A program made the position numbers and the translations under genes. A stretch of DNA of 32,000 nt from Acaryochloris thomasi RCC1774 (lineage in GTDB: Bacteria; Cyanobacteriota; Cyanobacteriia; Thermosynechococcales; Thermosynechococcaceae). Under the pieces are notes generated by a model. The model did no database searches. It was not told where the DNA came from and saw only the letters and a list, made by a program, of their open reading frames with translations. Positions 1,066 to 18,180 of this stretch are shown here, piece by piece (the stretch's first letter is position 1; every line of letters starts with the position of its first letter). The DNA lies in assembly GCF_003231495.1 (NCBI RefSeq), contig NZ_PQWO01000005.1, positions 90,001-122,000 on the forward strand. The letters run 5' to 3'.

Positions 1066-2511
1066 ATGGTCCCGATTCAGCAACCGCTTACCCATAGACC
1101 GAAGCCTCCGATGTGGCTGTTGGGCTTGATGGGAGCAGGAATTGTGCTTGGAGTCTCAGGAGTATATGTGATCGGCCAGAGTGCATCTGGCGATATTGAT
1201 CTCAATCAGCTAACAGTTCCCGTCAAATCAGAAAGTTTAACGCTTCGGATCGCTGCCAGCGGAACGCTGATTCCTGCTCAGAACGTCAATCTCAGCCCTA
1301 AGGTCGCAGGCGTTGTAGCGCAGCTTCTCGTTGAGCAGGGCGATCAGGTTGAGCAGGGTCAAGTGATTGCTCGCATGGATCGCCGCGACTTAGAAGGGCA
1401 GATTATTCAAGCCCGAGCTTCTGTCGCTCAAGCTCAGGCAAGATTGGCAGAGCTACGGGCCGGAAATCGGGTTGAAGAGGTGGCGCAGGCACAGGCTCGG
1501 ATGTCTCAAGCGCAGGCCGAATTGGCACGCCGCCGAGATCGTCGCCCAGAGGCAGTGGCCGAAGCCAGCAGTCAAGTCGCAGCCGCTGAATCCATGGCAA
1601 AACTCTCCCAAAAGCGGGTGGACCGCTATCAGGGCTTAGCGGAGGCTGGGGCTGAAACGCGCGATCGTGTGGATGAAGTCATTGCAGACAATCAGAATGC
1701 CCAGGCAATGCTGCGAGAGGCTAGAATGCGGCTCCAGAGGGTCCAAAACGAGACGGAGAGAGAGGTCCAGCAGTCTGTTGCCAGCGTTCAAGAGGCTCAG
1801 CAAGCGTTCCGTTTATCTCAACAGGGCACACGTCCCGAAGAAATTGCGCAAGCTGTTGCCGCGACTCGAGAAGCTGAGGGTCGCTTGCGAATCGTTGAAA
1901 ATCAATTTCGAGATACAGACATTCGCGCCCCGTTTGCAGGGATTATCACGCAGAAGTTTGCCTCCGTGGGCGCTTTTGTCACCCCCACGACCTCAGCATC
2001 TTCCACCCTATCTTCAACGTCAGCTTCTATTGTGTCGCTGGCAAGAGAGTTAGAGGTGGTCGCGAAGGTGCCGGAAATCGATATTGGCAAGGTTAGACCT
2101 GGCCAGCAGGTCGAAATCAGAGCTGATGCCTATCCCGAAAAAACCTTTACAGGACGGGTTCGTCTGGTCTCTCCTGAAGCGGTTGTGGATCAAAATGTCA
2201 CGTCATTTGAGGTGCGTATATCACTGCTGAGCGGACAGGACCAGCTGCTATCAGGGATGAATACAGACCTCACCTTTTTGGGTGACAAGGTAGATGATGC
2301 GGTGGTGGTGCCGACGGTTGCGATCGCAACCCAAAAGGGCCAAGCCGGTGTCTATCTCCCTGACGAGGACGACAAACCAGAATTCAAGCCCGTCACCATC
2401 GGCACCTCTGTTGCTGACAAAACCCAGATTTTAGATGGCGTAGAACCGGGCGAGCGTGTCTTCATCGACTTCCCGGAGGGCGTAGAGCCGGAGGACAGTG
2501 AGGCAGAATAA
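1066..2511 (+). CDS. Efflux periplasmic adaptor, HlyD/MacA/DevB family
   Basis: 481 aa. N-terminal TM helix (MWLLGLMGAGIVLGVSGVYVI), a lipoyl-like segment (KVAGVVAQLLVEQGDQVEQGQVIARMD), a long Ala/Gln/Arg-rich coiled coil, and a beta-barrel segment (IRAPFAGIITQ). The stop overlaps the next start (TAATG at 2509-2513). Confidence 0.9.
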   Translation: MVPIQQPLTHRPKPPMWLLGLMGAGIVLGVSGVYVIGQSASGDIDLNQLTVPVKSESLTLRIAASGTLIPAQNVNLSPKVAGVVAQLLVEQGDQVEQGQVIARMDRRDLEGQIIQARASVAQAQARLAELRAGNRVEEVAQAQARMSQAQAELARRRDRRPEAVAEASSQVAAAESMAKLSQKRVDRYQGLAEAGAETRDRVDEVIADNQNAQAMLREARMRLQRVQNETEREVQQSVASVQEAQQAFRLSQQGTRPEEIAQAVAATREAEGRLRIVENQFRDTDIRAPFAGIITQKFASVGAFVTPTTSASSTLSSTSASIVSLARELEVVAKVPEIDIGKVRPGQQVEIRADAYPEKTFTGRVRLVSPEAVVDQNVTSFEVRISLLSGQDQLLSGMNTDLTFLGDKVDDAVVVPTVAIATQKGQAGVYLPDEDDKPEFKPVTIGTSVADKTQILDGVEPGERVFIDFPEGVEPEDSEAE

Positions 2512-3728
2512 TGGATATTGTTGAGAGCGTTAAGATGGCCGGGGCCACCCTGATTGCCAATCGGCTCCGCAGCAGCTTGACCATGCTGGGCATGATTATT
2601 GGCAACGCCTCCGTGATTTCGATGATTGCTGTCGGGCAAGGAGCAGAGAAATATGCAGCTGGGCAGTTTGAATCACTCGGTCCTAATTCTCTATTTATTG
2701 TCCCCGGTAGCGACAGAGCAAGGCGGCGCACCTTTGAGGTTCCCAAGACTCTTGTTCTGGCCGATGCCGAAGCGATTAGGACTCAAGTTCCAACGGTCCA
2801 GGGGGTTGCTCCGCAAATTCAAGAGCAGCTTTCTGTTGTATACGGAAACGTCAATACCAGCATTTCAGTGACGGGCACCGACGAAAATTATGCTGCGGTG
2901 CGCGACCATGACGTCGCTCAGGGGCGATTTATTACGGCTCTCGATGTTAAACGCGGCAATCCTATAGCCGTCATTGGCTCTGATGTCGTAGATAAAGTCT
3001 TTGGCAGCACAAATCCCCTAGGCAAACAACTGCGGCTCAACAACCTCAGTTTTCAAATCGTGGGAATTATGGAGACGAAAGGTTCTTTCCTTGGCTCCAG
3101 TCAAGATGACGTCATTTTTATTCCGCTGTCGGTGATGGCGGATCGGCTGTCAGGTTCCACTTCTCCCTTCGGGACTCAGCTCACTTTTATTTCGGTTTCT
3201 GCCCGCAATCAGGCCAGTATTCCAGCCGCACAGTTCCAGATTCGCAACCTGCTGCGGCTCCGGCACAAGATAATCGATGAAGATGATTTCACGGTGCGAT
3301 CGCAAAAGCAGGCCCTCGAAATTATTGGCAACGTCAGCGGTGCCTTAACCGTTATGCTCGCCGCCATTGCCAGCATCTCGCTCTTGGTCGGCGGCATCGG
3401 CATTATGAATATCATGTTGGTTTCTGTGACCGAGCGCATTCAAGAAATTGGCCTGCGGAAAGCCATTGGCGCTTCACAGCAGGATATTTTGGTGCAGTTC
3501 ATGATTGAAGCCATCATTCTCTCAGCGGCAGGCGGCCTGATCGGGACCGCAGTTGGCGTCGGCGGCACCCTCGTAGTAGGAGCCTTCACACCCTTAGAGA
3601 CGGGCATTTCAATCCCTGCCGTGGTTATGGCAGTCAGCGTTTCCGGCGGCATTGGTCTCTTCTTCGGCGTCGTGCCCGCCCGTCGCGCCGCCAGGATGGA
3701 TCCCATTGTCGCGCTCCGCAGCGCCTAA
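2511..3728 (+). CDS. ABC-transporter permease, MacB/DevC-like (FtsX domain, large periplasmic loop)
   Basis: 405 aa. N-terminal TM helix, a periplasmic domain of about 230 aa, and a C-terminal FtsX-type three-TM bundle (ERIQEIGLRKAIGASQQDILVQF, ARRAARMDPIVALRSA). Translationally coupled to the adaptor gene. No ATPase gene follows. Confidence 0.9.
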   Translation: MDIVESVKMAGATLIANRLRSSLTMLGMIIGNASVISMIAVGQGAEKYAAGQFESLGPNSLFIVPGSDRARRRTFEVPKTLVLADAEAIRTQVPTVQGVAPQIQEQLSVVYGNVNTSISVTGTDENYAAVRDHDVAQGRFITALDVKRGNPIAVIGSDVVDKVFGSTNPLGKQLRLNNLSFQIVGIMETKGSFLGSSQDDVIFIPLSVMADRLSGSTSPFGTQLTFISVSARNQASIPAAQFQIRNLLRLRHKIIDEDDFTVRSQKQALEIIGNVSGALTVMLAAIASISLLVGGIGIMNIMLVSVTERIQEIGLRKAIGASQQDILVQFMIEAIILSAAGGLIGTAVGVGGTLVVGAFTPLETGISIPAVVMAVSVSGGIGLFFGVVPARRAARMDPIVALRSA

Positions 3729-4005
3729 TCAGATTCTCTACAAGTGGGTCTATAGGAGATGAGGCTCGGAAACCGCTTTGGTGCTGATCTTTTGAACTAG
3801 GTTTGGCCATTCTTATCGATTGACCAAGCACAGAAACAAACTTTTGGTAGCGCTGACGTATTAATCCATACACTTGGGAGCATAGATAGTCAAGTTCGTA
3901 ACGATGCTAAAAAAAAGATTTTTCTATGCAAAAATCAAACTGACGTGTTGCGACATGATTTCGTGCAGCAACAAAGGTAAATGAGTTTTTTAAGGTATAG
4001 GTATC

Positions 4006-6420
4006 GTGAACAATCAAAGCATACTCGATCAGCTTCGAGAGTTTAAGGCACAGAAAAGCTTATTTTCTGAGCGTTACAGCTTCATACAGCAAGAACCTGA
4101 TGTGCCTACGGAGCCTTCAAGCTCAATACAACAGCCACTCCTTCGTACTGAAGTGAGTCAGAACGGTTCTTTAGGTTTGGCATCCGTCATTCAGCCACCC
4201 TCCGCTTTCAGATCGTTGGGCAGCACACAGACAGCAGCACCGCTGAGTGATGAGGCATTACCCGAACTCATTCTCGATCCCGTTACACAACTGGTGACGG
4301 TTGACGATGATTCCCCTACTGTTTCTGTCCTCTGGGACCGGGCCGTGCAGCTAGCGGTGATCAATGGCGCTCCAGGTCCAACGGTCGCATCCCGCGCCTA
4401 CGGTATGTTGCACACGGCCATGTTTGACGCTTGGGCAGCCTATGACCCCGTTGCGATCGCAACCCAACTGGGCGATGACCTGCAGCAGTCCGCCTCAGCC
4501 AACACCGTCGAAAACAAAACAGAGGCCATGAGTTACGCCGCCTATCGCGTACTCACCGATCTTTTTCCTGAAGAGATTGCTAGCTTTGACGCCTTGATGG
4601 CTGAATTGGGCTTTGACCCCAGCAATACCACCACCGACACCACCACCGCTGCCGGGATTGGAAATGTATCAGCAGAAGCGCTTCTAGAGTTTCGCCGTAC
4701 GGATGGCTCAAATCAGCTCGGTAACGATCCGAACGGCACGCTGGGTACTCCCTACTCTGACAACAGTGGATACACCCCCTTCAACAATACGGGCGAAAGC
4801 ATTGACATCGAACGCTGGACCCCCGAGAGCGTTCCCATTGACGCGGCCCCCGGAGAAGAACTTCGAACCCAACAATTCCTAACGCCCCAGTGGGGTGATG
4901 TCACCCCCTTCAGCCTAGACTCCGGCGATCAGCTTCGCCCCGAAGCCCCTGAACCCTTTTTGGTTGACGGCGTTGGGGGAACCGTCGATCTCGAAGCCAA
5001 AACCATTACGCTAGCCGACGGCACGGTACTCCCCATTAGCAAAGACCTGATTGGTACCGTTATTAACCCTGGCTTTATTGAGCAAGCCGAGAGAGTCGTC
5101 GAAGTCAGTGCCAATCTAACCGATGAGGAAAAGCTGGTTGCTGAATTTTGGGAAGACGGCGGCGGGACTTCATTCCCTCCCGGCACCTGGATGACTTTCG
5201 GGCAGTTTGTTTCAGCCCGCGACAACAACAGCCTCGACACCGATGCTCAACTGTTCTTCGGACTTGGCAATGCTGTCTTCGACGCGGGCGTGACTACCTG
5301 GGAAGCCAAAACGTTCTACGACTACGCCCGTCCGGTTCGCGCAATCCGCGATCTCGGTGAACTCGGCCTGATCGGCGAATTTGATGCAGACCTGGGTGGC
5401 TTTGCCGTTGATGCTTGGGCAGGCCCCGGTGAAGGCACCCAAAGAATACTGGCGACAGACTTCATCACCTATCAAACCCCCGGCACAGACCCGTCACCTC
5501 CGTTTGCTGAATACACCTCAGGACACAGCGCCTTCAGCGCTTCCGGTGCCGAAATCTTGAAGTTGTTTACGGGCAGTGATTCCTTCGGCGGGTCTGTCAC
5601 CTTTGCACCCGGTGAATCACGGTTTGAGCCAGGTCTCACGCCAGGGGATGAAACAACCCTAGACTGGAATACTTTCACGACGGCAGCCGACGAAGCCGGA
5701 ATTTCTCGGATTTATGGTGGCATTCACTTCGATGACGGTGACCTTAATGGTCGAGCATTGGGTCGCCAAGTCGGTCGCTCTGTCCTCGATCAGACCCTGC
5801 TTTTTATTAACGGAGGCCAAGCCGTCAACTCCATTACCGGTACCGAGCGCCGTGACTTTTTACGCGGCACTAGTGGGGATGACCGCATCGTGGGTCTCGG
5901 TGGCAATGATGTCATCTGGGCTCGTCGCGGCAATGATCGGGCACTTGGGGGCGATGGGCGTGATGTGATCTTCGGCGGACAGGGCAGCGATTCTCTAAGT
6001 GGCGGCAGCGGTCGGGATGCTTTGCTGGGCGGCACCGGACGGGATTACCTGACGGGTGGCCACGATCGTGACGTCCTCAAGGGCGGCAGCGCTGATGACA
6101 TCCTGATGGGCGATCAGGGCAATGATGTTCTGTTCGGCGGTCGGGGACGTGATGGCTTTATCTTCGGCAACGGCGACGGCAAAGATGTCGTCTTTGATTT
6201 CAAGGTAGGCACTGACTTCATCGGCTTAGTGGACGGGTTAACCTTTGATGACCTCGATATCTCTCGCCGGGGCCGCAACACGGTTCTAGGCGTCACCGAA
6301 ACGGGAGAAGACCTGGCCATTCTTAGACGGGTTTCCTCTTCTCAATTAACAGAAGATCAGTTTTTAGCCGCCGCTGACTTCTCAGGTTTCACTAGAATTC
6401 CTAGCGATTCAGTCACCTGA
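4006..6420 (+). CDS. PAP2 / vanadium-dependent haloperoxidase-like protein fused to C-terminal RTX (hemolysin-type Ca-binding) repeats
   Basis: 804 aa with a GTG start. PAP2/VHPO motifs: K-x6-RP (AKTFYDYARP, from 5308), SGH (YTSGHSAF, from 5518) and SRIYGGIHF (about 5704-5727). Roughly 10 GGxGxD nonapeptide repeats lie at about 5840-6200 (GGNDVIW, GGDGRDVIF, GGQGSDSLS, GGSGRDALL, GGTGRDYLT and others). No N-terminal signal peptide, which fits type-I secretion substrates. Confidence 0.8.
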   Translation: MNNQSILDQLREFKAQKSLFSERYSFIQQEPDVPTEPSSSIQQPLLRTEVSQNGSLGLASVIQPPSAFRSLGSTQTAAPLSDEALPELILDPVTQLVTVDDDSPTVSVLWDRAVQLAVINGAPGPTVASRAYGMLHTAMFDAWAAYDPVAIATQLGDDLQQSASANTVENKTEAMSYAAYRVLTDLFPEEIASFDALMAELGFDPSNTTTDTTTAAGIGNVSAEALLEFRRTDGSNQLGNDPNGTLGTPYSDNSGYTPFNNTGESIDIERWTPESVPIDAAPGEELRTQQFLTPQWGDVTPFSLDSGDQLRPEAPEPFLVDGVGGTVDLEAKTITLADGTVLPISKDLIGTVINPGFIEQAERVVEVSANLTDEEKLVAEFWEDGGGTSFPPGTWMTFGQFVSARDNNSLDTDAQLFFGLGNAVFDAGVTTWEAKTFYDYARPVRAIRDLGELGLIGEFDADLGGFAVDAWAGPGEGTQRILATDFITYQTPGTDPSPPFAEYTSGHSAFSASGAEILKLFTGSDSFGGSVTFAPGESRFEPGLTPGDETTLDWNTFTTAADEAGISRIYGGIHFDDGDLNGRALGRQVGRSVLDQTLLFINGGQAVNSITGTERRDFLRGTSGDDRIVGLGGNDVIWARRGNDRALGGDGRDVIFGGQGSDSLSGGSGRDALLGGTGRDYLTGGHDRDVLKGGSADDILMGDQGNDVLFGGRGRDGFIFGNGDGKDVVFDFKVGTDFIGLVDGLTFDDLDISRRGRNTVLGVTETGEDLAILRRVSSSQLTEDQFLAAADFSGFTRIPSDSVT

Positions 6421-8102: not shown

Positions 8103-8345
8103 ATGGAATGGCGACTAGCAGAGGCAAAGAATAAATTCAGTGAGTTGGTCAACCTTGCACTTTCGGAAGGGCCTCAAAAAGTAAAACGTCGGAATGATGT
8201 TGTGGTTGTGTTAGCTGAGCATGACTATGAACTATTAACTGGTACAAAGCCTAGCTTTAAAGACTTTTTGCTGCAGGACGGTCCCAGTCTAGAGGGAATT
8301 GAGCTAGAACGAGATCGCTCCCCCATGCGAGATGTAGAATTGTGA
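8103..8345 (+). CDS. vapB: Type II antitoxin, Phd/YefM-like (VapB role)
   Basis: 80 aa. MEWRLAEAKNKFSELVNLA...VVVVL is the typical Phd/YefM N-terminus. There is a 4-nt overlap (GTGA) with the downstream PIN gene. Confidence 0.8.
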   Translation: MEWRLAEAKNKFSELVNLALSEGPQKVKRRNDVVVVLAEHDYELLTGTKPSFKDFLLQDGPSLEGIELERDRSPMRDVEL

Positions 8346-8764
8346 GCACACTGCTCGATACTTGCGTTTTATCTGAGTTGAGACATCCCAATTGTGATGA
8401 GGGGGTCAAGATCGCAGTATCTACTCTAGCCAGTCAAGATCTATTCATCAGCGTGATTTCCATAGGTGAAATTACGAAGGGGATTGCATTACTTGAGGCG
8501 AGTAAACGTAAACAGGAGCTTTTAACCTGGATCCACAAGCTGGAAAAGAATTATTCAGATCGTCTTCTACCCGTCGATCTTGAGGTGGTAAAAATTTGGG
8601 GAGAAATTACGGCAAACGCTCAGAGAAAAGGGCGAATCATCCCTACTGGTGATGGGCTGATTGCCTCAACAGCTCAACATCATGGCCTAAAGGTGATGAC
8701 ACGAAACATTTCTGACTTTGAGCCGACGGGGGTAATGCTCGTGAATCCTTGGAGTGGAGATTAG
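8342..8764 (+). CDS. vapC: Type II toxin VapC (PIN-domain ribonuclease)
   Basis: 140 aa with a GTG start. LLDTCVLSE (first acidic PIN residue), GEIT...A, and a C-terminal D...TRN segment (GLKVMTRNISDF). Confidence 0.9.
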   Translation: MSTLLDTCVLSELRHPNCDEGVKIAVSTLASQDLFISVISIGEITKGIALLEASKRKQELLTWIHKLEKNYSDRLLPVDLEVVKIWGEITANAQRKGRIIPTGDGLIASTAQHHGLKVMTRNISDFEPTGVMLVNPWSGD

Positions 8765-8815: not shown

Positions 8816-9055
8816 TCATATATGGAAATATTTCGACAGCTCTGTAGCTGGAATATACTGACTAGCCTGCTTAAAAATGGCCCTGCATGTTCCAGTATCT
8901 AGCTGCTTATGATTAGGAATGGTCAAAGTCTCTTTGCCTATCTCGGTTACGCGCCGCATTTTGATATGACTGCCACGTTGACTGTGGATCTTAAAACCGA
9001 ATATTTCAAGTATCTTGACGACTTCTGGCCCTGGTAGCTGCTTGAATTTAGGCAT
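8816..9055 (-). CDS. hicA: HicA-family toxin (mRNA interferase)
   Basis: MPKFKQLPGPEVVKILEIFGFKIHSQRGSHIKMRR is the HicA/YcfA signature. I prefer ATG at 9055 over the track's TTG at 9073. ATG 9055-9053 overlaps the hicB stop (TAA 9050-9048) as ATGCCTAA. Confidence 0.8.
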   Translation of the reverse strand: MPKFKQLPGPEVVKILEIFGFKIHSQRGSHIKMRRVTEIGKETLTIPNHKQLDTGTCRAIFKQASQYIPATELSKYFHI

Positions 9056-9284
9056 ACTCTGGCTGCAGTTCAAAGGTAACAGCCAGAGACGGCTGGGCTA
9101 CTAAGCCAAACTCTGTAGCGTCTGCATCCTCAAGATGTAAGCTAACGGCTTCACTTAAATTCTTTGAAACTTCATCCAGTGTCAAACCCTGCGTAACAAC
9201 TGATATTTCCATGCATTCAGCAAAATATCCTTGCTCTTCACCAGGTCGAATAATGGCGTGAATGTTTTGTTGTAGATGACTCAC
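9048..9284 (-). CDS. hicB: HicB-family antitoxin (UPF0150 fold, no obvious DNA-binding tail)
   Basis: 78 aa. IRPGEEQGYFAECMEISVVTQGLTLDEVSKNLSEAVSLHLE matches the HicB N-domain pattern. The gene lies immediately upstream of, and overlaps, hicA. Confidence 0.75.
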   Translation of the reverse strand: MSHLQQNIHAIIRPGEEQGYFAECMEISVVTQGLTLDEVSKNLSEAVSLHLEDADATEFGLVAQPSLAVTFELQPEYA

Positions 9285-12769: not shown

Positions 12770-13540
12770 CTAAGCGAGCGGCGCTGCTTCAGTCGTGCGG
12801 AGTAAATCCATGATTTCATCTTGATATTGTTGAAATTTGGATTCTCGTTTGACAAGGTAAGTGCGTTCGCTTGGCAAATCCACGGCAATTTCGCGCTGGA
12901 CCATACCGGGACGAGCGGTAAGTACATAAACCCGCTGGGAGAGAAAGACGGCTTCGCCCACGTCATGGGTGATCATCAAAATTGAGGTGCCGGTCTGTCG
13001 CCACAGATTAAGCAAGAACTGCTGCATGGTCTCTTTTGTTTGGACGTCCAAAGCCCCAAACGGCTCGTCCATTAACAAGATTTTGGGCTGGCAGGCTAGG
13101 GCACGGGCTATAGCAACTCGCTGCTTCATCCCCCCCGACAATTCTCTAGGTAGCGCCTTTGCAAACGCCGTCAAACCTACAACATCTAAGTAATAGGCTA
13201 CTCGATCTCGCCGCTCTTTCTGAGAAAAGCCCTGAAGCTTCAGACCAAACTCTACATTTTTTGCCACCGTCATCCAGGGATAAAGCGTGTAGCGTTGAAA
13301 CACCATCCCGCGATCGGGTCCAGGACCTACCACTGTTTTATCATCGACGGTAATCAAGCCAGTGGTTGGCAGATCTAGCCCAGCGACCATGCGCAATAGC
13401 GTTGACTTACCTGAACCAGAGGCACCCACCACGCAGACAAACTCGCCGGTTTCAACATGGAGATTGATTGCTTCGAGAACCGAAAGCGAACCTTGCTGGG
13501 TGGGGAATGACTTATAGAGATCCGTAATTTCTAAATGCAT
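12770..13540 (-). CDS. ABC transporter ATP-binding protein, NitT/TauT (nitrate/sulfonate/bicarbonate) family; probable guanidine importer ATPase
   Basis: 256 aa. Walker A GASGSGKST, signature LSGGMKQR, Walker B LLMDEPFGALD, H-loop ITHD. Last gene of the riboswitch operon. Confidence 0.93.
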   Translation of the reverse strand: MHLEITDLYKSFPTQQGSLSVLEAINLHVETGEFVCVVGASGSGKSTLLRMVAGLDLPTTGLITVDDKTVVGPGPDRGMVFQRYTLYPWMTVAKNVEFGLKLQGFSQKERRDRVAYYLDVVGLTAFAKALPRELSGGMKQRVAIARALACQPKILLMDEPFGALDVQTKETMQQFLLNLWRQTGTSILMITHDVGEAVFLSQRVYVLTARPGMVQREIAVDLPSERTYLVKRESKFQQYQDEIMDLLRTTEAAPLA

Positions 13541-13544
13541 GGCC

Positions 13545-14381
13545 CTAATCCACCGCCCACTTACAGGATATGTTCAGCAACCAGCGGAAAAACAGATCCA
13601 AACAAAAGCCAATCAAGCCCAGGATCAGCAGCAGGGCAAAAATTTCGTCAGTGCGAAAAAATCGCTGCGCCAGCTCCACCCGCTTCCCGAGACCTTCGGT
13701 AGCTGCCACCAGCTCTGCAATCACCACTAAATTCCATGATGCAGCCATGTTCACCCGGAAGGCGTCGATAATTTTAGGCATGACATAGGGCGTAATCACC
13801 TGCATCAGCACTTGCCGCTGACGCCCGCCCAGAGTATACGTCGTTTCAATCAGTTCTTTGGGCACAAACTTCACCGCATCCATAATCATCAAAATATTGA
13901 AGAAAACGGTGCCAATGAAAATTAGCGCAATTTTAGGCGGTTCATCTAAACCGAGATAAATGATCAGGAGTGGGATAAAGGCTGGAGCTGGCATATAGCG
14001 GACAAAGCCAATGATGGGTTCCAAAAGTGCCCTGATGCTGGGAAATGTCCCCATACCAATTCCAATCGGAACTGAGAGAACCGCAGCCAGTAGAAATCCA
14101 CCACCCACTCGAAAACAGCTTGCAGTCGTATCTTTGAGCAAGTATCCCTTCTCCCAAAGCGTACCGAACGCTTCAATCACCTTGGCAGGAGAGGGCAAAA
14201 ACTTTGGATCAACAAAACCCGCGCTAGAAAGACCCCACCAGAGTATCAAAGGCACTAGAAACGATAGTGCAATCAAAAACCACTTAAGACCGATCGGAAT
14301 ATCATCAACGATGCGCCAAAAAACGGTGGGCCGAAGTCCTTCTAATTTAGTGTCTGGCGCTGAGGTCGGGTGAGAGATCAT
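13545..14381 (-). CDS. ABC transporter permease, NitT/TauT family
   Basis: 278 aa, multi-TM, with an EAA-like loop (ELVAATEGLGKRV). There is a 4-nt gap to the ATPase gene. Confidence 0.92.
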   Translation of the reverse strand: MISHPTSAPDTKLEGLRPTVFWRIVDDIPIGLKWFLIALSFLVPLILWWGLSSAGFVDPKFLPSPAKVIEAFGTLWEKGYLLKDTTASCFRVGGGFLLAAVLSVPIGIGMGTFPSIRALLEPIIGFVRYMPAPAFIPLLIIYLGLDEPPKIALIFIGTVFFNILMIMDAVKFVPKELIETTYTLGGRQRQVLMQVITPYVMPKIIDAFRVNMAASWNLVVIAELVAATEGLGKRVELAQRFFRTDEIFALLLILGLIGFCLDLFFRWLLNISCKWAVD

Positions 14382-14450
14382 GGAGGTGCCTACAAAATGA
14401 TCAATGGGCAGGCTAATGCCCGCCCAATATCAAATAGCCAATCAGCCTAA

Positions 14451-15479
14451 CTAGCCCTTGTTCTGTTCAGCATAAGCTTTGACAAAGGTATCGTCGAAGA
14501 TCTTCGTCAAGTCTGGACCTTCAGGAATAAAGCCAACATCCACCATAAACTTCGTCATCCGCTCCGCAGCGAAGGGCATATGCTTCATGTTGTCTCCGTC
14601 GCTGAAGGCTTCGAGATTATCTTCAATCGTGAAAAAGCGCGTCCCTTCATTGAACTTCTCGAATTCTTCCGGCGACACCCCGGCACGCTCTGACAATATC
14701 TTGTCCGCTTCTTCAGGATTTTCTTCCATGAAGGCTCGGATATCAAACCAAGTATTCACAAGCGCCTGTACCTGATCAGGGCGCTCATCGATCAGCTTTT
14801 GGCTCACGGTCAGCAAGTCAGGAATCGCCCCTGGAAACTGTGCTGAAGAGAAGAGCTCTTTACTCCCCTCTCGTTGAAGGGCCGTCAGCCAGAAGGGCGG
14901 GAATGCACCCACTGCGTCCACCTGACCTGCAACAAATGCCGCTGCCGCTTTACCTGTCTCTAGGGGAACAATTTCGACGTCCTCGCGCTTCATCCCCTCT
15001 TCTTCTAGCCCTAAGGTCAGCAAAAAGTCGTCAACAACGCCTTCTTCAACGGCAACTTTTCTCCCTTTCAGATCTTGAATACTATTGATTTCCTCTGTAA
15101 CAATAATTTTGTCATTGCCATCAGAGTTATCGTTTACAAGCACCACTACTTGACCATTGGTCGAATCGGCAGCGAAAGAAATTGTGTCATTGAGCGTTTG
15201 GGTGTTGCCGTCTAGTTGACCTGCAGCAAAGGCTTCCATCGACTGTAGATAACCATCAAACCATTTGAGTTCGACGTTAGCCCCGTTCTTTTCAAAGAGT
15301 CCTTCTTGTTCAGCAATCACCCAAGGCCACCAGCCCGGCCAGCTACTGTAGCCAATCACCACAGGGGAGCCACCGTCACCAGCGGGCGCATTACCAGATG
15401 GCGTTTGGGTACAGCTCACCGTCAACAGCAAGCTACATAGAAAAAGAGTACAGATAGATAAAAAGCTACGCCGCTTCAT
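14451..15479 (-). CDS. ABC transporter substrate-binding protein (NMT1/SsuA-like), possible lipoprotein
   Basis: 342 aa. Signal peptide ending LLLTVSC. Periplasmic binding fold typical of NitT/TauT systems (VVIGYSSWPGWWPW). Confidence 0.9.
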   Translation of the reverse strand: MKRRSFLSICTLFLCSLLLTVSCTQTPSGNAPAGDGGSPVVIGYSSWPGWWPWVIAEQEGLFEKNGANVELKWFDGYLQSMEAFAAGQLDGNTQTLNDTISFAADSTNGQVVVLVNDNSDGNDKIIVTEEINSIQDLKGRKVAVEEGVVDDFLLTLGLEEEGMKREDVEIVPLETGKAAAAFVAGQVDAVGAFPPFWLTALQREGSKELFSSAQFPGAIPDLLTVSQKLIDERPDQVQALVNTWFDIRAFMEENPEEADKILSERAGVSPEEFEKFNEGTRFFTIEDNLEAFSDGDNMKHMPFAAERMTKFMVDVGFIPEGPDLTKIFDDTFVKAYAEQNKG

Positions 15480-15522
15480 AGGCTTTCCTTAGATTGAATT
15501 GATACGATGTGAAATTAAACCA

Positions 15523-16218
15523 CTATGCTGATTGATGGGCCGGTTTACGGCTTCTGACTTGCGATCGCAACCAGTCAAACCACCTCTCTAACCCATCACC
15601 CGACTGCGCCGAGACCGGAATAACTTTCACACGGGGATTAAGCTGTCGCACATTAGCAACAATGCGCTCAATCTCAATGTCAAGGTACGGTGCCAAATCA
15701 ATTTTAGTAATCAGCAAACAATCTGCCGCCTGAAACATCACCGGATATTTCAGCGGCTTGTCTTCCCCTTCTGTGACGCTGAGCAGTGCTACCTTGGCAT
15801 GTTCGCCGACTTCAAACTCAGCGGGACAGACTAAGTTACCCACATTTTCCACCAGCACCAGGTCTAGATCGGTGGGTCGATGATCTTGCTTGAGCTGATG
15901 AATTCCCCCGGCGACCATCTTGGCATCTAAATGACAAGAGCGACCCGTATTAATGGCAATAACGGGCACATCATATTGTCTAAGGCGGTCTGCATCCAGT
16001 TCAGTCGTCATATCACCCTCGATCACCGCAATTTTGAGTTCGGGGCGCAGTGCAGCTAGGGTTTTCTCCAGCAGGACTGTCTTGCCAGCACCGGGACTGC
16101 TCATCAGGTTTAGGCAAGTCACACCCCATTCATCAAAATGGACACGATTGTGATCGGCCCCTTCTTGGTTGGCATGGAGGAGGTTAATCCCCAGCGCCGC
16201 ATCAACGGTTTGGTGCAT
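15523..16218 (-). CDS. hypB: HypB-type Ni-metallochaperone GTPase (GhaB-like accessory protein for guanidine hydrolase)
   Basis: P-loop [17 protein letters not shown], and the TKIDL GTPase motif. I prefer ATG 16218 (MHQTVDAAL...) to the track's TTG 16257. Overlaps the hypA 3' end by 17 nt. Confidence 0.9.
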
Positions 16219-16582
16219 AGGTTTGTTCCGAATCGGTACAGTATTCGATGCGATCAATCTTTAGCTCCCGCCCCGAGCGGATATCGTCCATTGGGGCTTT
16301 GCAGTCAGGGCAGGCATATTGCAGACCTATTTCAGGGGAGTATTCCTGCTCACAAGAATGACAAAAGGCAATCAGCGGCGTCTCGCGAATCACCAGTTCG
16401 GTATTCTCTAAAAAGGTGCCTCGAGTCTGCACCTCGTAGGCAAACTGGAGACTCACCGGCTCCACGCAGGTGAATCGGCCCACTACGAGATGAACCTTAC
16501 TCACCTCCGGTCGCTCAGGCTGGCTTTCCCACCAGTCCGTGACCGTCATGAGCAGAGCCTTGGTCATATCCGTCTCGTGCAT
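16202..16582 (-). CDS. hypA: HypA-type Ni-metallochaperone (GhaA-like)
   Basis: 126 aa. N-terminal MHE nickel motif and a zinc site CHSC...CPDC. The start overlaps the gdmH stop (TAATG, 16584-16580). Confidence 0.9.
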
Positions 16583-17780
16583 TACCGCCAGTCACCCATA
16601 CCAACAGACATATTGGCCTGCTCGTGAATGTAGGCTGCCTTCTCAGGTCGAGGCAACTGACCAGAGGTGACTAAGTGAGCCATCGTGTCACAGATGACGC
16701 GGGTCGCCATTAACGAGGTCATATCGCTGACGTCATAGGGCGGGGACACCTCAACGATTTCCAGACCGCAAACGGGGGCATTTTGGACAATTTTGCCCAG
16801 CATGTACAGCGCTTCACGGGGCATCAGACCGCCTGGTTCCGGCCAGCCCGTACCGGGGACAAAGCCTGCATCAATACAGTCAATATCAAAGCTAATATAG
16901 ACGCAGTCGGTACCGTCTAGGGCACGCTCAAGGGCAAAGTCTACGGCGGCATCCATGCCCATTTCCATGATGTCGGTCACGGTCAGAATATTGGTGGCCC
17001 GCTCACGGCAGACTTTGACGCCCTGGCGGGGCACCTGCCAGCCGCCAATCCCAAGCTGCACCAGGTTCTTGGCTGGCGCATTGGCCATGTTGGTAGCGTG
17101 GAACCAAGGACAGGTGTGCATCCGTTCGTCGAGATCGGTCTCTTGGGTATCAACGTGGCGATCGAAGTGAATGATGCCCACTTTTAGATCGCCTAGGTGA
17201 CGGCAAACGCCTCGAATGGTGGGGAAGCCAATGGAGTGGTCGCCCCCCAAAATGATTGGGAACGCGCCAGAACTAAAGATGTGAGCAATGCCCTTAGAAA
17301 TCTGATCGAAAGACTTTTCGTTGTTCGCAGGGATGGTAAAGATATCCCCAACATCGCAGAGAGTAATTTGCTCTCTGAGATCGACGCCCAGTTCAAAATT
17401 GTATGGCGTATACAACGCTGATATACGTCGTATACCTTGGGGACCGAAGCGGGTGCCGGGTCGATAGGTGGTGCCGGAGTCGTGGGGAACGCCGACAATA
17501 GCGACGTCGTAGTTGCCGACTTTGCGGACACTTCTAGATAGGGAGCCTTGAGAAAGGTATTGATGCCTGCGTAGTGGGGCAGTTCACCGCGAGAGAAGGT
17601 GGGGATAGTGCGATCGCGAATGCTTTCAGCCGCCTCTAAGCCAAACTGCAGCCCTTGATCCACTTCTTGCTGCCATCCGGTCAGCGGCAGTCGGGATTCT
17701 CGTTCTAGAGCCTGTTCAGCAACGCTCTCGCCCGGTTGAAAAACAGCATCGGGTTGTTGGAATAAAGGATCGTCAGTCAT
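16582..17780 (-). pseudogene. gdmH: Ni-dependent guanidine hydrolase GdmH-like (agmatinase/ureohydrolase family), with the reading frame broken by a 1-nt shift at about 17520
   Basis: Codons 1-87 (17780-17520) encode the long N-terminal extension ending ...INTFLKAPYLEVSAK. The conserved core (VGNYDVAIVGVPHDSGTTYRPGTRFGPQGIRRISALYTPYNF...GGDHS...DRHVD...SFDIDCID) is open in the -1 frame from 17520 to the stop at 16582. Joined, the two parts give 399 aa. The track shows them as the overlapping ORFs 17193..17780 and 16582..17415. Confidence 0.8.
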
Positions 17781-17870
17781 GATTCATCCGTCAGTAGGTC
17801 AAAGAATTGTATTTTTCTTTTTAAAGGAATATCTTTTCTGAATGTCCCAAATCGCTCCTCAACAGCATAC

Positions 17871-18048
17871 ATAAAACCCGGGGCAACAACTCATAGAGAT
17901 ACCGATCCCTACGACTGTTCCTCCCGGGCTTTTGTCCCGCCGTGTCACTAGATAAACAACCGAAGCACAACATTCGGCTCTAGGTTCTAGCTGCTTCTCT
18001 CGGACCAGACATTCATCGTTAAAAACGAGAACCGGAACCCTAGAAGCG
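17871..18048 (-). promoter_or_regulatory. ykkC: Guanidine-I riboswitch (ykkC class) with a terminator-type expression platform
   Basis: The minus strand reads GCUUCUAGGGUUCCGG...CUGGUCCGAGAGAAGC (18048-17992), a variable hairpin, then ACACGGCGGGACAAAAGCCCGGGAGG (to 17920). These are the two invariant ykkC blocks. CCCGGGAGGAACAG (17928-17915) can instead pair with UUGUUGCCCCGGG (17889-17877), which is followed by UUUUAU (17876-17871). Confidence 0.88.
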
Positions 18049-18180
18049 ATGATTTGTAATGATTAAAACTGAAATTTCATTGACTTGTTTACAACGCTAG
18101 CAAGACCTAAATCAAAGAACTGTAGCAAGCACTACTAAACCTAGCTTCAAGTCCCCTGGACAAGCACTGTAACCTGTTAG

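Follow-up and report, generated by a model that had tools for sequence, protein, structure and literature searches.

A 32,000-nucleotide (nt) stretch of the Acaryochloris thomasi RCC1774 genome, hereafter the window, carries on its minus strand a guanidine-I riboswitch followed by six genes, and this locus is very probably the orthologue of the Synechocystis guanidine-assimilation cluster gdmH-ghaA-ghaB-gimABC, working in the way proposed below. The system itself has already been published and studied by experiment, and this copy departs from it solely by a one-base deletion in gdmH, the gene of the guanidine hydrolase. The Synechocystis guanidine hydrolase was reportedly characterised experimentally by Funck et al. 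in 2022, in Nature.

The Synechocystis enzyme, Sll1077, hydrolyses guanidine to urea and ammonium (Wang et al. 2021, Nat Commun, PMC8390497). In Synechocystis PCC 6803, gdmH-ghaA-ghaB form one NtcA-activated transcript (Itzenhauser et al. 2025, PNAS, PMC12704784), and the gdmH leader is a functional guanidine-I riboswitch, with a dissociation constant (Kd) of about 58 µM by in-line probing and a 4-5-fold induction of a green fluorescent protein reporter (PMC12704784). In the same work sll1080-1082 were named gimABC and identified as a high-affinity guanidine importer, with a Kd of 97 nM for GimA and no growth of gimA and gimB mutants at 0.1 mM guanidine; gimABC constitute a separate transcription unit (TU794) with its own NtcA-dependent promoter (PMC12704784). 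The window resembles the Synechocystis locus sll1077-sll1082 in its six genes and their order, in the guanidine-I aptamer within the gdmH leader, in the upstream NtcA-type box and in the HypA/HypB-type chaperones encoded directly 3' of gdmH. The genes, and one hairpin lying between two of them, are the following:

16582..17780, minus strand: gdmH, Ni-dependent guanidine hydrolase, Sll1077 orthologue, with a 1-nt deletion (open reading frames and homology)
16202..16582, minus strand: ghaA, HypA-type Ni metallochaperone (TIGR00100, PF01155, junction)
15523..16218, minus strand: ghaB, HypB-type GTPase (TIGR00073, junction)
14451..15479, minus strand: gimA, predicted guanidine-binding periplasmic lipoprotein of a NitT/TauT-type ATP-binding cassette (ABC) importer (SsuA_fam, NMT1, pocket residues)
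14405..14426, minus strand: GC-rich 9-bp hairpin in the 69-nt gimA-gimB spacer (fold)
13545..14381, minus strand: gimB, ABC permease (PF00528; best matches TauC/SaoP-type permeases)
12770..13540, minus strand: gimC, ABC ATPase (PF00005; junction)

According to the mechanism we propose, transcription would start from an NtcA-type promoter under nitrogen limitation (box 18135-18122, -10 element 18099-18094), and the 5' leader would form the guanidine-I aptamer. Without guanidine, the 3' strand of aptamer helix P3 would join a terminator hairpin (17932-17873, then UUUUAU) and transcription would stop about 95 nt before the start codon; with guanidine, P3 would be held, the terminator blocked and the genes transcribed (ON switch), as expected from the Synechocystis orthologue. 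GdmH would convert guanidine into urea and ammonium, GhaA and GhaB would load it with nickel and GimABC would import guanidine with high affinity, all six genes being probably located on one riboswitch-gated transcript. The deletion in gdmH codon 84, if real, would abolish the enzyme.

The closest relative found is the metagenomic contig ENA ERZ6863655 c_000001422156 (here L081), which is syntenic with the window over a radical-SAM gene, a GH1 beta-glucosidase gene, the riboswitch and all six genes, with 82% DNA identity and 96% amino acid (aa) identity in GdmH. Among the matches listed by the genome scan, the best relative shows 91% identity at protein level.

Riboswitch, terminator and putative promoter of the leader

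Four elements were recognised in the leader and just upstream of it:

17919..18054, minus strand: guanidine-I (ykkC) riboswitch aptamer (RF00442 covariance model)
17871..17932, minus strand: intrinsic terminator, expression platform (fold and comparison with L081)
18122..18135, minus strand: perfect NtcA consensus box GTAGTGCTTGCTAC (GTA-N8-TAC; motif scan)
18094..18099, minus strand: putative -10 element TAGCGT (TAN3T; sequence reading and scan)

An Rfam scan of the whole window gave a single match above threshold to RF00442 (ykkC-yxkD), with 67.7 bits against a gathering score of 63 (E-value 3.5e-10), spanning model positions 1-107 and hence full-length. This is the covariance-model check that had been suggested in a first-pass annotation of this DNA, and its outcome upholds the claim made there that a guanidine-I riboswitch heads the operon; both invariant ykkC blocks which that annotation had read on the minus strand are found in the alignment, and the boundary it had set at 18048 has to be extended to 18054. 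The aptamer blocks CUAGGGUUCCG, GGUCCGAGAG and ACGGnGGGAnAAAAGCCCGGGAG all agree with the consensus (posterior 9 or * on the cmscan scale), and the conserved blocks are the same in L081 save for a variable position of the last one (C in the window, A in L081). P2 comprises 33 nt in place of the consensus 8, the insertion folding as a hairpin of its own; with its longer P1b and P2 insertions the aptamer differs from that of Synechocystis. The orthologous aptamers of L081, L045 (A. marina MBIC11017) and L080 score 72-75 bits with the curated Rfam model. By analogy with the Synechocystis leader, the window leader would bind guanidine selectively and be read through in a guanidine-dependent manner.

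The 5' arm of the terminator re-uses AAAAGCCCGGGAG, i.e. the 3' strand of the last aptamer helix P3, and pairs with 17889-17877, followed by a U-tract at 17876-17873 and then AU (UUUUAU). Folding of the region 17945-17860 yielded a minimum free energy (MFE) of -44.3 kcal/mol (z -6.3), a stability that none of 200 shuffled sequences reached, in full agreement with the alternative pairing described in the first-pass annotation. The terminator is almost invariant between the window and L081, and where the two differ the stem still pairs: an A-U pair is replaced by G-C in a compensatory double change, and two G.U pairs become A-U. A terminator competing with aptamer P3 has the anatomy of an ON switch, and the Synechocystis orthologue suggests that guanidine would be the signal to which it responds. 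The L081 leader also harbours, between the terminator and the gdmH start (about 5600-5690), an 82-nt insertion with TTTAAAGATTGATTTA direct repeats that is absent from the window.

The -10 element TAGCGT follows the NtcA box at a spacing of exactly 22 nt, and transcription would start near 18086-18090, about 35 nt ahead of the aptamer. The same alignment columns contain, in L081, an NtcA box with one mismatch and a TACCTT element, and perfect NtcA boxes were found 62-71 nt before the aptamer in five other loci. Neither the NtcA promoter nor the long terminator was picked up by a consensus promoter and terminator scanner, whose loop limit is 8 nt.

GdmH and the one-base deletion in its gene

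GdmH was compared with known enzymes as a 399-aa product in which the missing Asp was restored. This repaired protein matched Sll1077 (PDB 7ESR/7OI1) with 793 bits (E-value 4e-238) in a near end-to-end alignment, which shows a single one-residue gap near the N terminus and runs straight through YLEDVRKVG. With the Nitrospira inopinata guanidinase (PDB 9FEK, PMC11410670) it scored 582 bits, while no other solved ureohydrolase exceeded 170 bits and the top chain named agmatinase reached 131 bits. The repaired protein has the metal-ligand motifs GGDHS, FDRHVD and SFDIDCID and, at positions identical to those of the N. inopinata enzyme, the guanidinase-specific residues Thr105, His222, Trp313 and Glu344 (residue list from PMC11410670). 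The N. inopinata enzyme belongs to the same guanidinase clade but derives from a nitrifier and another genomic context, and has its own 14-aa N-terminal extension without the cyanobacterial C-terminal one (PMC11410670). The Pfam Arginase domain begins at GdmH residue 92. The alignment with Sll1077 starts at residue 14, those with other ureohydrolases not before residues 63-94, and GdmH and Sll1077 have in common an N-terminal region of about 65-90 residues before that domain. The long N-terminal extension to which the first-pass annotation had drawn attention is, as such, real and shared, and it was recovered by the alignment to Sll1077 proposed there. Judging from its sequence, GdmH is a guanidine hydrolase of the Sll1077 clade within the arginase family, predicted to release urea and ammonium in a Ni-dependent reaction.

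Were the enzyme instead an ordinary SpeB-type agmatinase, with HypA/HypB serving hydrogenase or urease maturation and the riboswitch being incidental, the agmatinase names carried by members of the cluster in public records would be explained, as would the score of the repaired protein on the NCBIfam agmatinase equivalog TIGR01230 (173.8 bits), just below the cut-off of 174.3. This is scarcely credible given the distance between the scores with Sll1077 and the N. inopinata guanidinase and that with the best agmatinase chain, and given that the guanidinase-specific Thr, His, Trp and Glu are all there. Moreover, Pfam scans of the 19 open reading frames (ORFs) of at least 150 aa in the 32 kb found no hydrogenase or urease gene, as had been stated before, and guanidine, not agmatine, is degraded by Sll1077 (PMC8390497). 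Bit scores and guanidinase residues together rule out a SpeB-type identity, the outcome which the first-pass annotation had named as a possible refutation. With a score this near the TIGR01230 cut-off, GdmH orthologues lie close to the edge of automatic agmatinase naming.

In the deposited sequence, gdmH consists of two overlapping ORFs in different frames, 17193..17780 (195 aa) and 16582..17415 (277 aa). Three-frame translation showed that the homology to Sll1077 switches frame between the Glu codon ending at 17532 and the Val codon starting at 17529; the missing base falls between 17531 and 17530, in Asp codon 84 (DNA CTA GAA G-T GTC CGC). Frame 0 holds ...HYAGINTFLKAPYLE, and the -1 frame, which contains the catalytic domain, carries on with VRKVGNYDVAIVGVPHDSG, so the frameshift site, just upstream of the arginase domain, parts the N-terminal extension from the catalytic domain. 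E-D-V-R is read in one frame in all the 80 orthologous loci listed by the genome scan (e.g. CTAGAAGATGTCCGG), and the L081 gene is intact (398 aa). Downstream of the lesion (17193-17530) frame 0 is open for 112 codons, up to the stop at 17193. Simulating the same deletion in 81 relatives gave runs of at least 112 codons in 26 of them, L081 reaching exactly 112, and a 112-codon off-frame run is an ordinary property of gdmH codon usage. The catalytic frame has no canonical start codon ahead of the TTG at 17415, and a product begun there would be devoid of the first beta-strand and of Thr105. As sequenced, a functional GdmH cannot be made, and ribosomes translating the gene would stop about 610 nt short of the TAATG coupling site. 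The window gene, having no uninterrupted reading frame for the whole enzyme, is a gdmH orthologue, but a frameshifted gene or pseudogene as sequenced. The operon had previously been called complete, which does not hold with gdmH frameshifted by a 1-nt deletion; the joined 399-aa protein put forward on that occasion needs a one-base repair, the two ORFs having been joined without flagging the frameshift.

The 195-aa frameshift product derives from the NCBI assembly, and the deletion therefore sits in the deposited sequence. The ratio of nonsynonymous to synonymous substitution rates (dN/dS) of gdmH against L081 is 0.017, lower than in any other gene of the operon, and for the part past the lesion it is 0.009, with values of 0.04-0.05 for the other five genes. 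Using A. marina and L080 as outgroups, two unique substitutions, both conservative, were assigned to the window lineage and one to L081. The gene has been under strong purifying selection until essentially the present; since no decay is seen, gdmH was functional until then, and the deletion is either very recent or a consensus error.

These two possibilities are about equally likely. A genuine deletion, to which we assign a little less than an even chance, would make RCC1774 the carrier of a freshly inactivated gdmH pseudogene, unable to hydrolyse guanidine and still encoding riboswitch, chaperones and importer. No homopolymer is present at the site, GAAG^TGTCC, and PCR-free Illumina data seldom yield indels in the consensus. 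The library of the RCC1774 genome was indeed PCR-free and was sequenced on a MiSeq instrument, but the mean coverage was just about 20x (PMC6002478). The frameshift product is traced to the NCBI assembly itself, and the protein accessions WP_110985919, -20, -21, -23 and -24 (gimC, gimB, gimA, ghaA and beta-glucosidase) leave one number for ghaB plus gdmH, which fits a pseudogene call; furthermore, gdmH is the one broken gene noticed in the 32 kb, so errors are not widespread in the assembly. On the other hand, neither a second lesion nor a rise in dN/dS accompanies the deletion, the downstream genes and the regulatory elements are all intact, and no independent sample of the species was found: metagenomes scanned for the exact site, both as 28 nt and as 29 nt including the extra base, gave no match.

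A sequencing or assembly error, in which case gdmH would in reality be intact (399 aa) and the operon fully functional, comes similarly close to an even chance. It is favoured by the strength of the constraint on gdmH, which by its dN/dS is the most strongly constrained gene of the operon, by the intact gene in the 80 listed relatives and L081, and by the low coverage of the draft assembly; nevertheless, the sequence context gives no ground for an Illumina indel error and the evolutionary data fit a very recent mutation equally well. Full-length GdmH might also be produced from the sequence as deposited, by programmed -1 ribosomal frameshifting or transcriptional slippage, and the overlap of the two frames, with frame 0 open for 112 codons past the site, is the sole point in favour of such recoding. 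It is very improbable, because CCC UAU CUA GAA GUG UCC contains neither an X XXY YYZ slippery heptamer nor a homopolymer, gdmH is read in a single frame in the 80 listed relatives and L081, hence there is no conserved recoding signal, and off-frame runs of this length are ordinary; programmed frameshifting was rejected on these three grounds. In reads across the site, GAAGTGTCC throughout would indicate a real pseudogene, GAAGATGTCC or GAAGACGTCC an assembly error, and GAAGATGTC or GAAGACGTC would contradict a genuine deletion.

Predicted nickel chaperones, importer and transcript structure

GhaA scored 113.3 bits on TIGR00100 (cut-off 88.1) and matched PF01155, and GhaB scored 312.9 bits on TIGR00073 (cut-off 121.2), so that both proteins described in the first-pass annotation as HypA/HypB homologues pass the HypA and HypB equivalog models. 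The ghaB start was placed at the ATG at 16218, the mechanical ORF beginning at the TTG at 16257; the L081 orthologue (231 aa) is called from the equivalent ATG. The gdmH stop and the ghaA start overlap in TAATG, ghaA and ghaB overlap by 17 nt with the ATG at 16218, and 4 nt separate gimB from gimC; six co-oriented genes with these very junctions had been reported before, and the junctions hold base for base. The adjacency of ghaA-ghaB to gdmH is kept in nearly all related loci and, together with the family assignments, supports a predicted role of GhaA and GhaB as dedicated Ni chaperones of GdmH.

GimA matched SsuA_fam with 282.5 bits and contains NMT1 domains. Its binding pocket was examined indirectly, by transferring the published Sll1080 residue numbers (PMC12704784) at a common offset: W47, W50, D123, F193 and D221 of GimA correspond to W59, W62, D135, F205 and D233 of Sll1080, and over all offsets from -40 to +40 the five-residue match occurs at 12 only. 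Four of the five residues are invariant in 54 orthologues, the fifth being always Phe or Trp. GimB shows 90% aa identity to its L081 orthologue. The assignment of the ABC system as guanidine importer GimABC, with high-affinity binding and uptake predicted, is supported by these residues and by analogy with Synechocystis; guanidine import, previously deduced from riboswitch control, agrees with the published GimABC experiments. An association of guanidine-I riboswitches with NitT/TauT-family transporters has been noted before (PMC8390497).

The ghaB-gimA spacer measures 43 nt, is unstructured and contains no terminator, and no NtcA-like box (GTA-N8-TAC, at most one mismatch) is present in the 630 nt upstream of gimA, in contrast with the separate NtcA-activated gimABC unit of Synechocystis; therefore, the six genes probably form one riboswitch-gated transcript in this lineage. 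Across 55 loci, the spacer is 27-61 nt long in the Acaryochloris clade against a median of 122 nt, and an NtcA-like box plus -10 element precedes gimA in only 3. A gimA-specific NtcA promoter is a trait of the Synechocystis locus, not a defining feature of the protein family. The gimA-gimB spacer folds with -25.5 kcal/mol (z -2.8), and its hairpin may stabilise the upstream binding-protein message or attenuate the transcript beyond it. Downstream of gimC, terminator scan and folding revealed no convincing intrinsic terminator.

A different arrangement was observed in L024, from an Acaryochloridaceae metagenome-assembled genome, where gimABC lies upstream of gdmH with its own guanidine-I aptamer (1082-1202, 82.1 bits), and the aptamer before gdmH (about 5051) is only an nhmmer profile match below the Rfam threshold. 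In one further locus a second riboswitch is located between ghaB and gimA. From these two loci it follows that the importer can be riboswitch-gated on its own.

Besides the lesion in gdmH, several observations weigh against the locus being a working orthologue under the proposed control. The RF00442 score exceeds the gathering threshold by less than 5 bits, a small margin due to the insertions that lengthen P1b and P2. Folded on its own, the aptamer adopts an MFE structure that differs from the Rfam one and is no more stable than those of shuffled sequences; this outcome is usual for this riboswitch class and gives no independent support, the identity of the aptamer being based on the Rfam covariance model and not on the MFE fold. 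GTA-N8-TAC is not enriched in the window (5 observed against 2.7 expected), so that the weight of the NtcA box comes from its position and its 22-nt spacing to TAN3T and not from its count. Of 67 related leaders only 9 have a perfect box with a -10 element, compared with 3 in coding-sequence controls; support for the NtcA promoter is modest but agrees with the published NtcA control. Finally, Synechocystis gimABC has a promoter of its own, and an internal promoter of another type may precede gimA in the window.

Related loci, neighbouring genes and biological meaning

The arrangement was surveyed with an nhmmer aptamer profile and with tblastn searches using the six proteins in 83 sequences, namely the 80 loci listed by the genome scan, two further contigs and the window. 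The aptamer was detected in 68 of them, and the complete order riboswitch-gdmH-ghaA-ghaB-gimA-gimB-gimC in 39 including the window (38 of the 82 others), most of the incomplete loci being cut by contig ends. The proteobacterial ykkC subtype 1 regulon of urea/guanidine carboxylase operons and their NitT/TauT-type ABC transporters shares the aptamer class and the ON switch by terminator competition; there, however, guanidine is degraded by ATP-dependent carboxylation, whereas the window encodes a Ni-dependent hydrolase.

Among the other genes of the window, Pfam scans identified, besides others, an HlyD/MacB exporter, RTX/VCPO-like, TPR, peptidase S51, psbA, GH1 beta-glucosidase and radical-SAM genes. 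At 1066-6420 on the plus strand, genes of an HlyD-type and a MacB/FtsX-type exporter are followed by that of an 804-aa protein with DUF6851, a vanadium-chloroperoxidase-like helical domain and RTX calcium-binding repeats, which may be a secreted haloperoxidase-like protein encoded beside its exporter. Two small overlapping ORF pairs, at 8103-8764 on the plus strand (80+140 aa) and at 8816-9284 on the minus strand (85+78 aa), between the peptidase S51 gene and psbA, look like toxin-antitoxin modules. As for the naming of the guanidine genes, GenBank annotates only the C-terminal fragment of GdmH, as 'Proclavaminate amidinohydrolase', and the A. thomasi RCC1774 record bears misleading names for GimC ('Bicarbonate transport ATP-binding protein CmpD') and GimA ('aliphatic sulfonates-binding protein').

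The locus confirms that the Acaryochloris lineage has kept the guanidine-assimilation module described in Synechocystis, the newly named GimABC importer among its parts. With genes so closely spaced and no internal NtcA promoter, the importer seems to be coupled to the riboswitch more directly than in Synechocystis, a small regulatory variation. Given the gdmH deletion, guanidine use by A. thomasi RCC1774 should not be inferred from the presence of the genes alone. There is a nearly even chance that RCC1774 is a natural gdmH knockout which keeps a guanidine-induced importer and Ni chaperones on an apparent single riboswitch-gated transcript. If the frameshift is genuine, guanidine would be taken up but not degraded, and the strain would offer a ready-made test of the toxicity of guanidine import without hydrolysis, as well as an example of a very recent, possibly culture-acquired, loss of a nitrogen-scavenging pathway.

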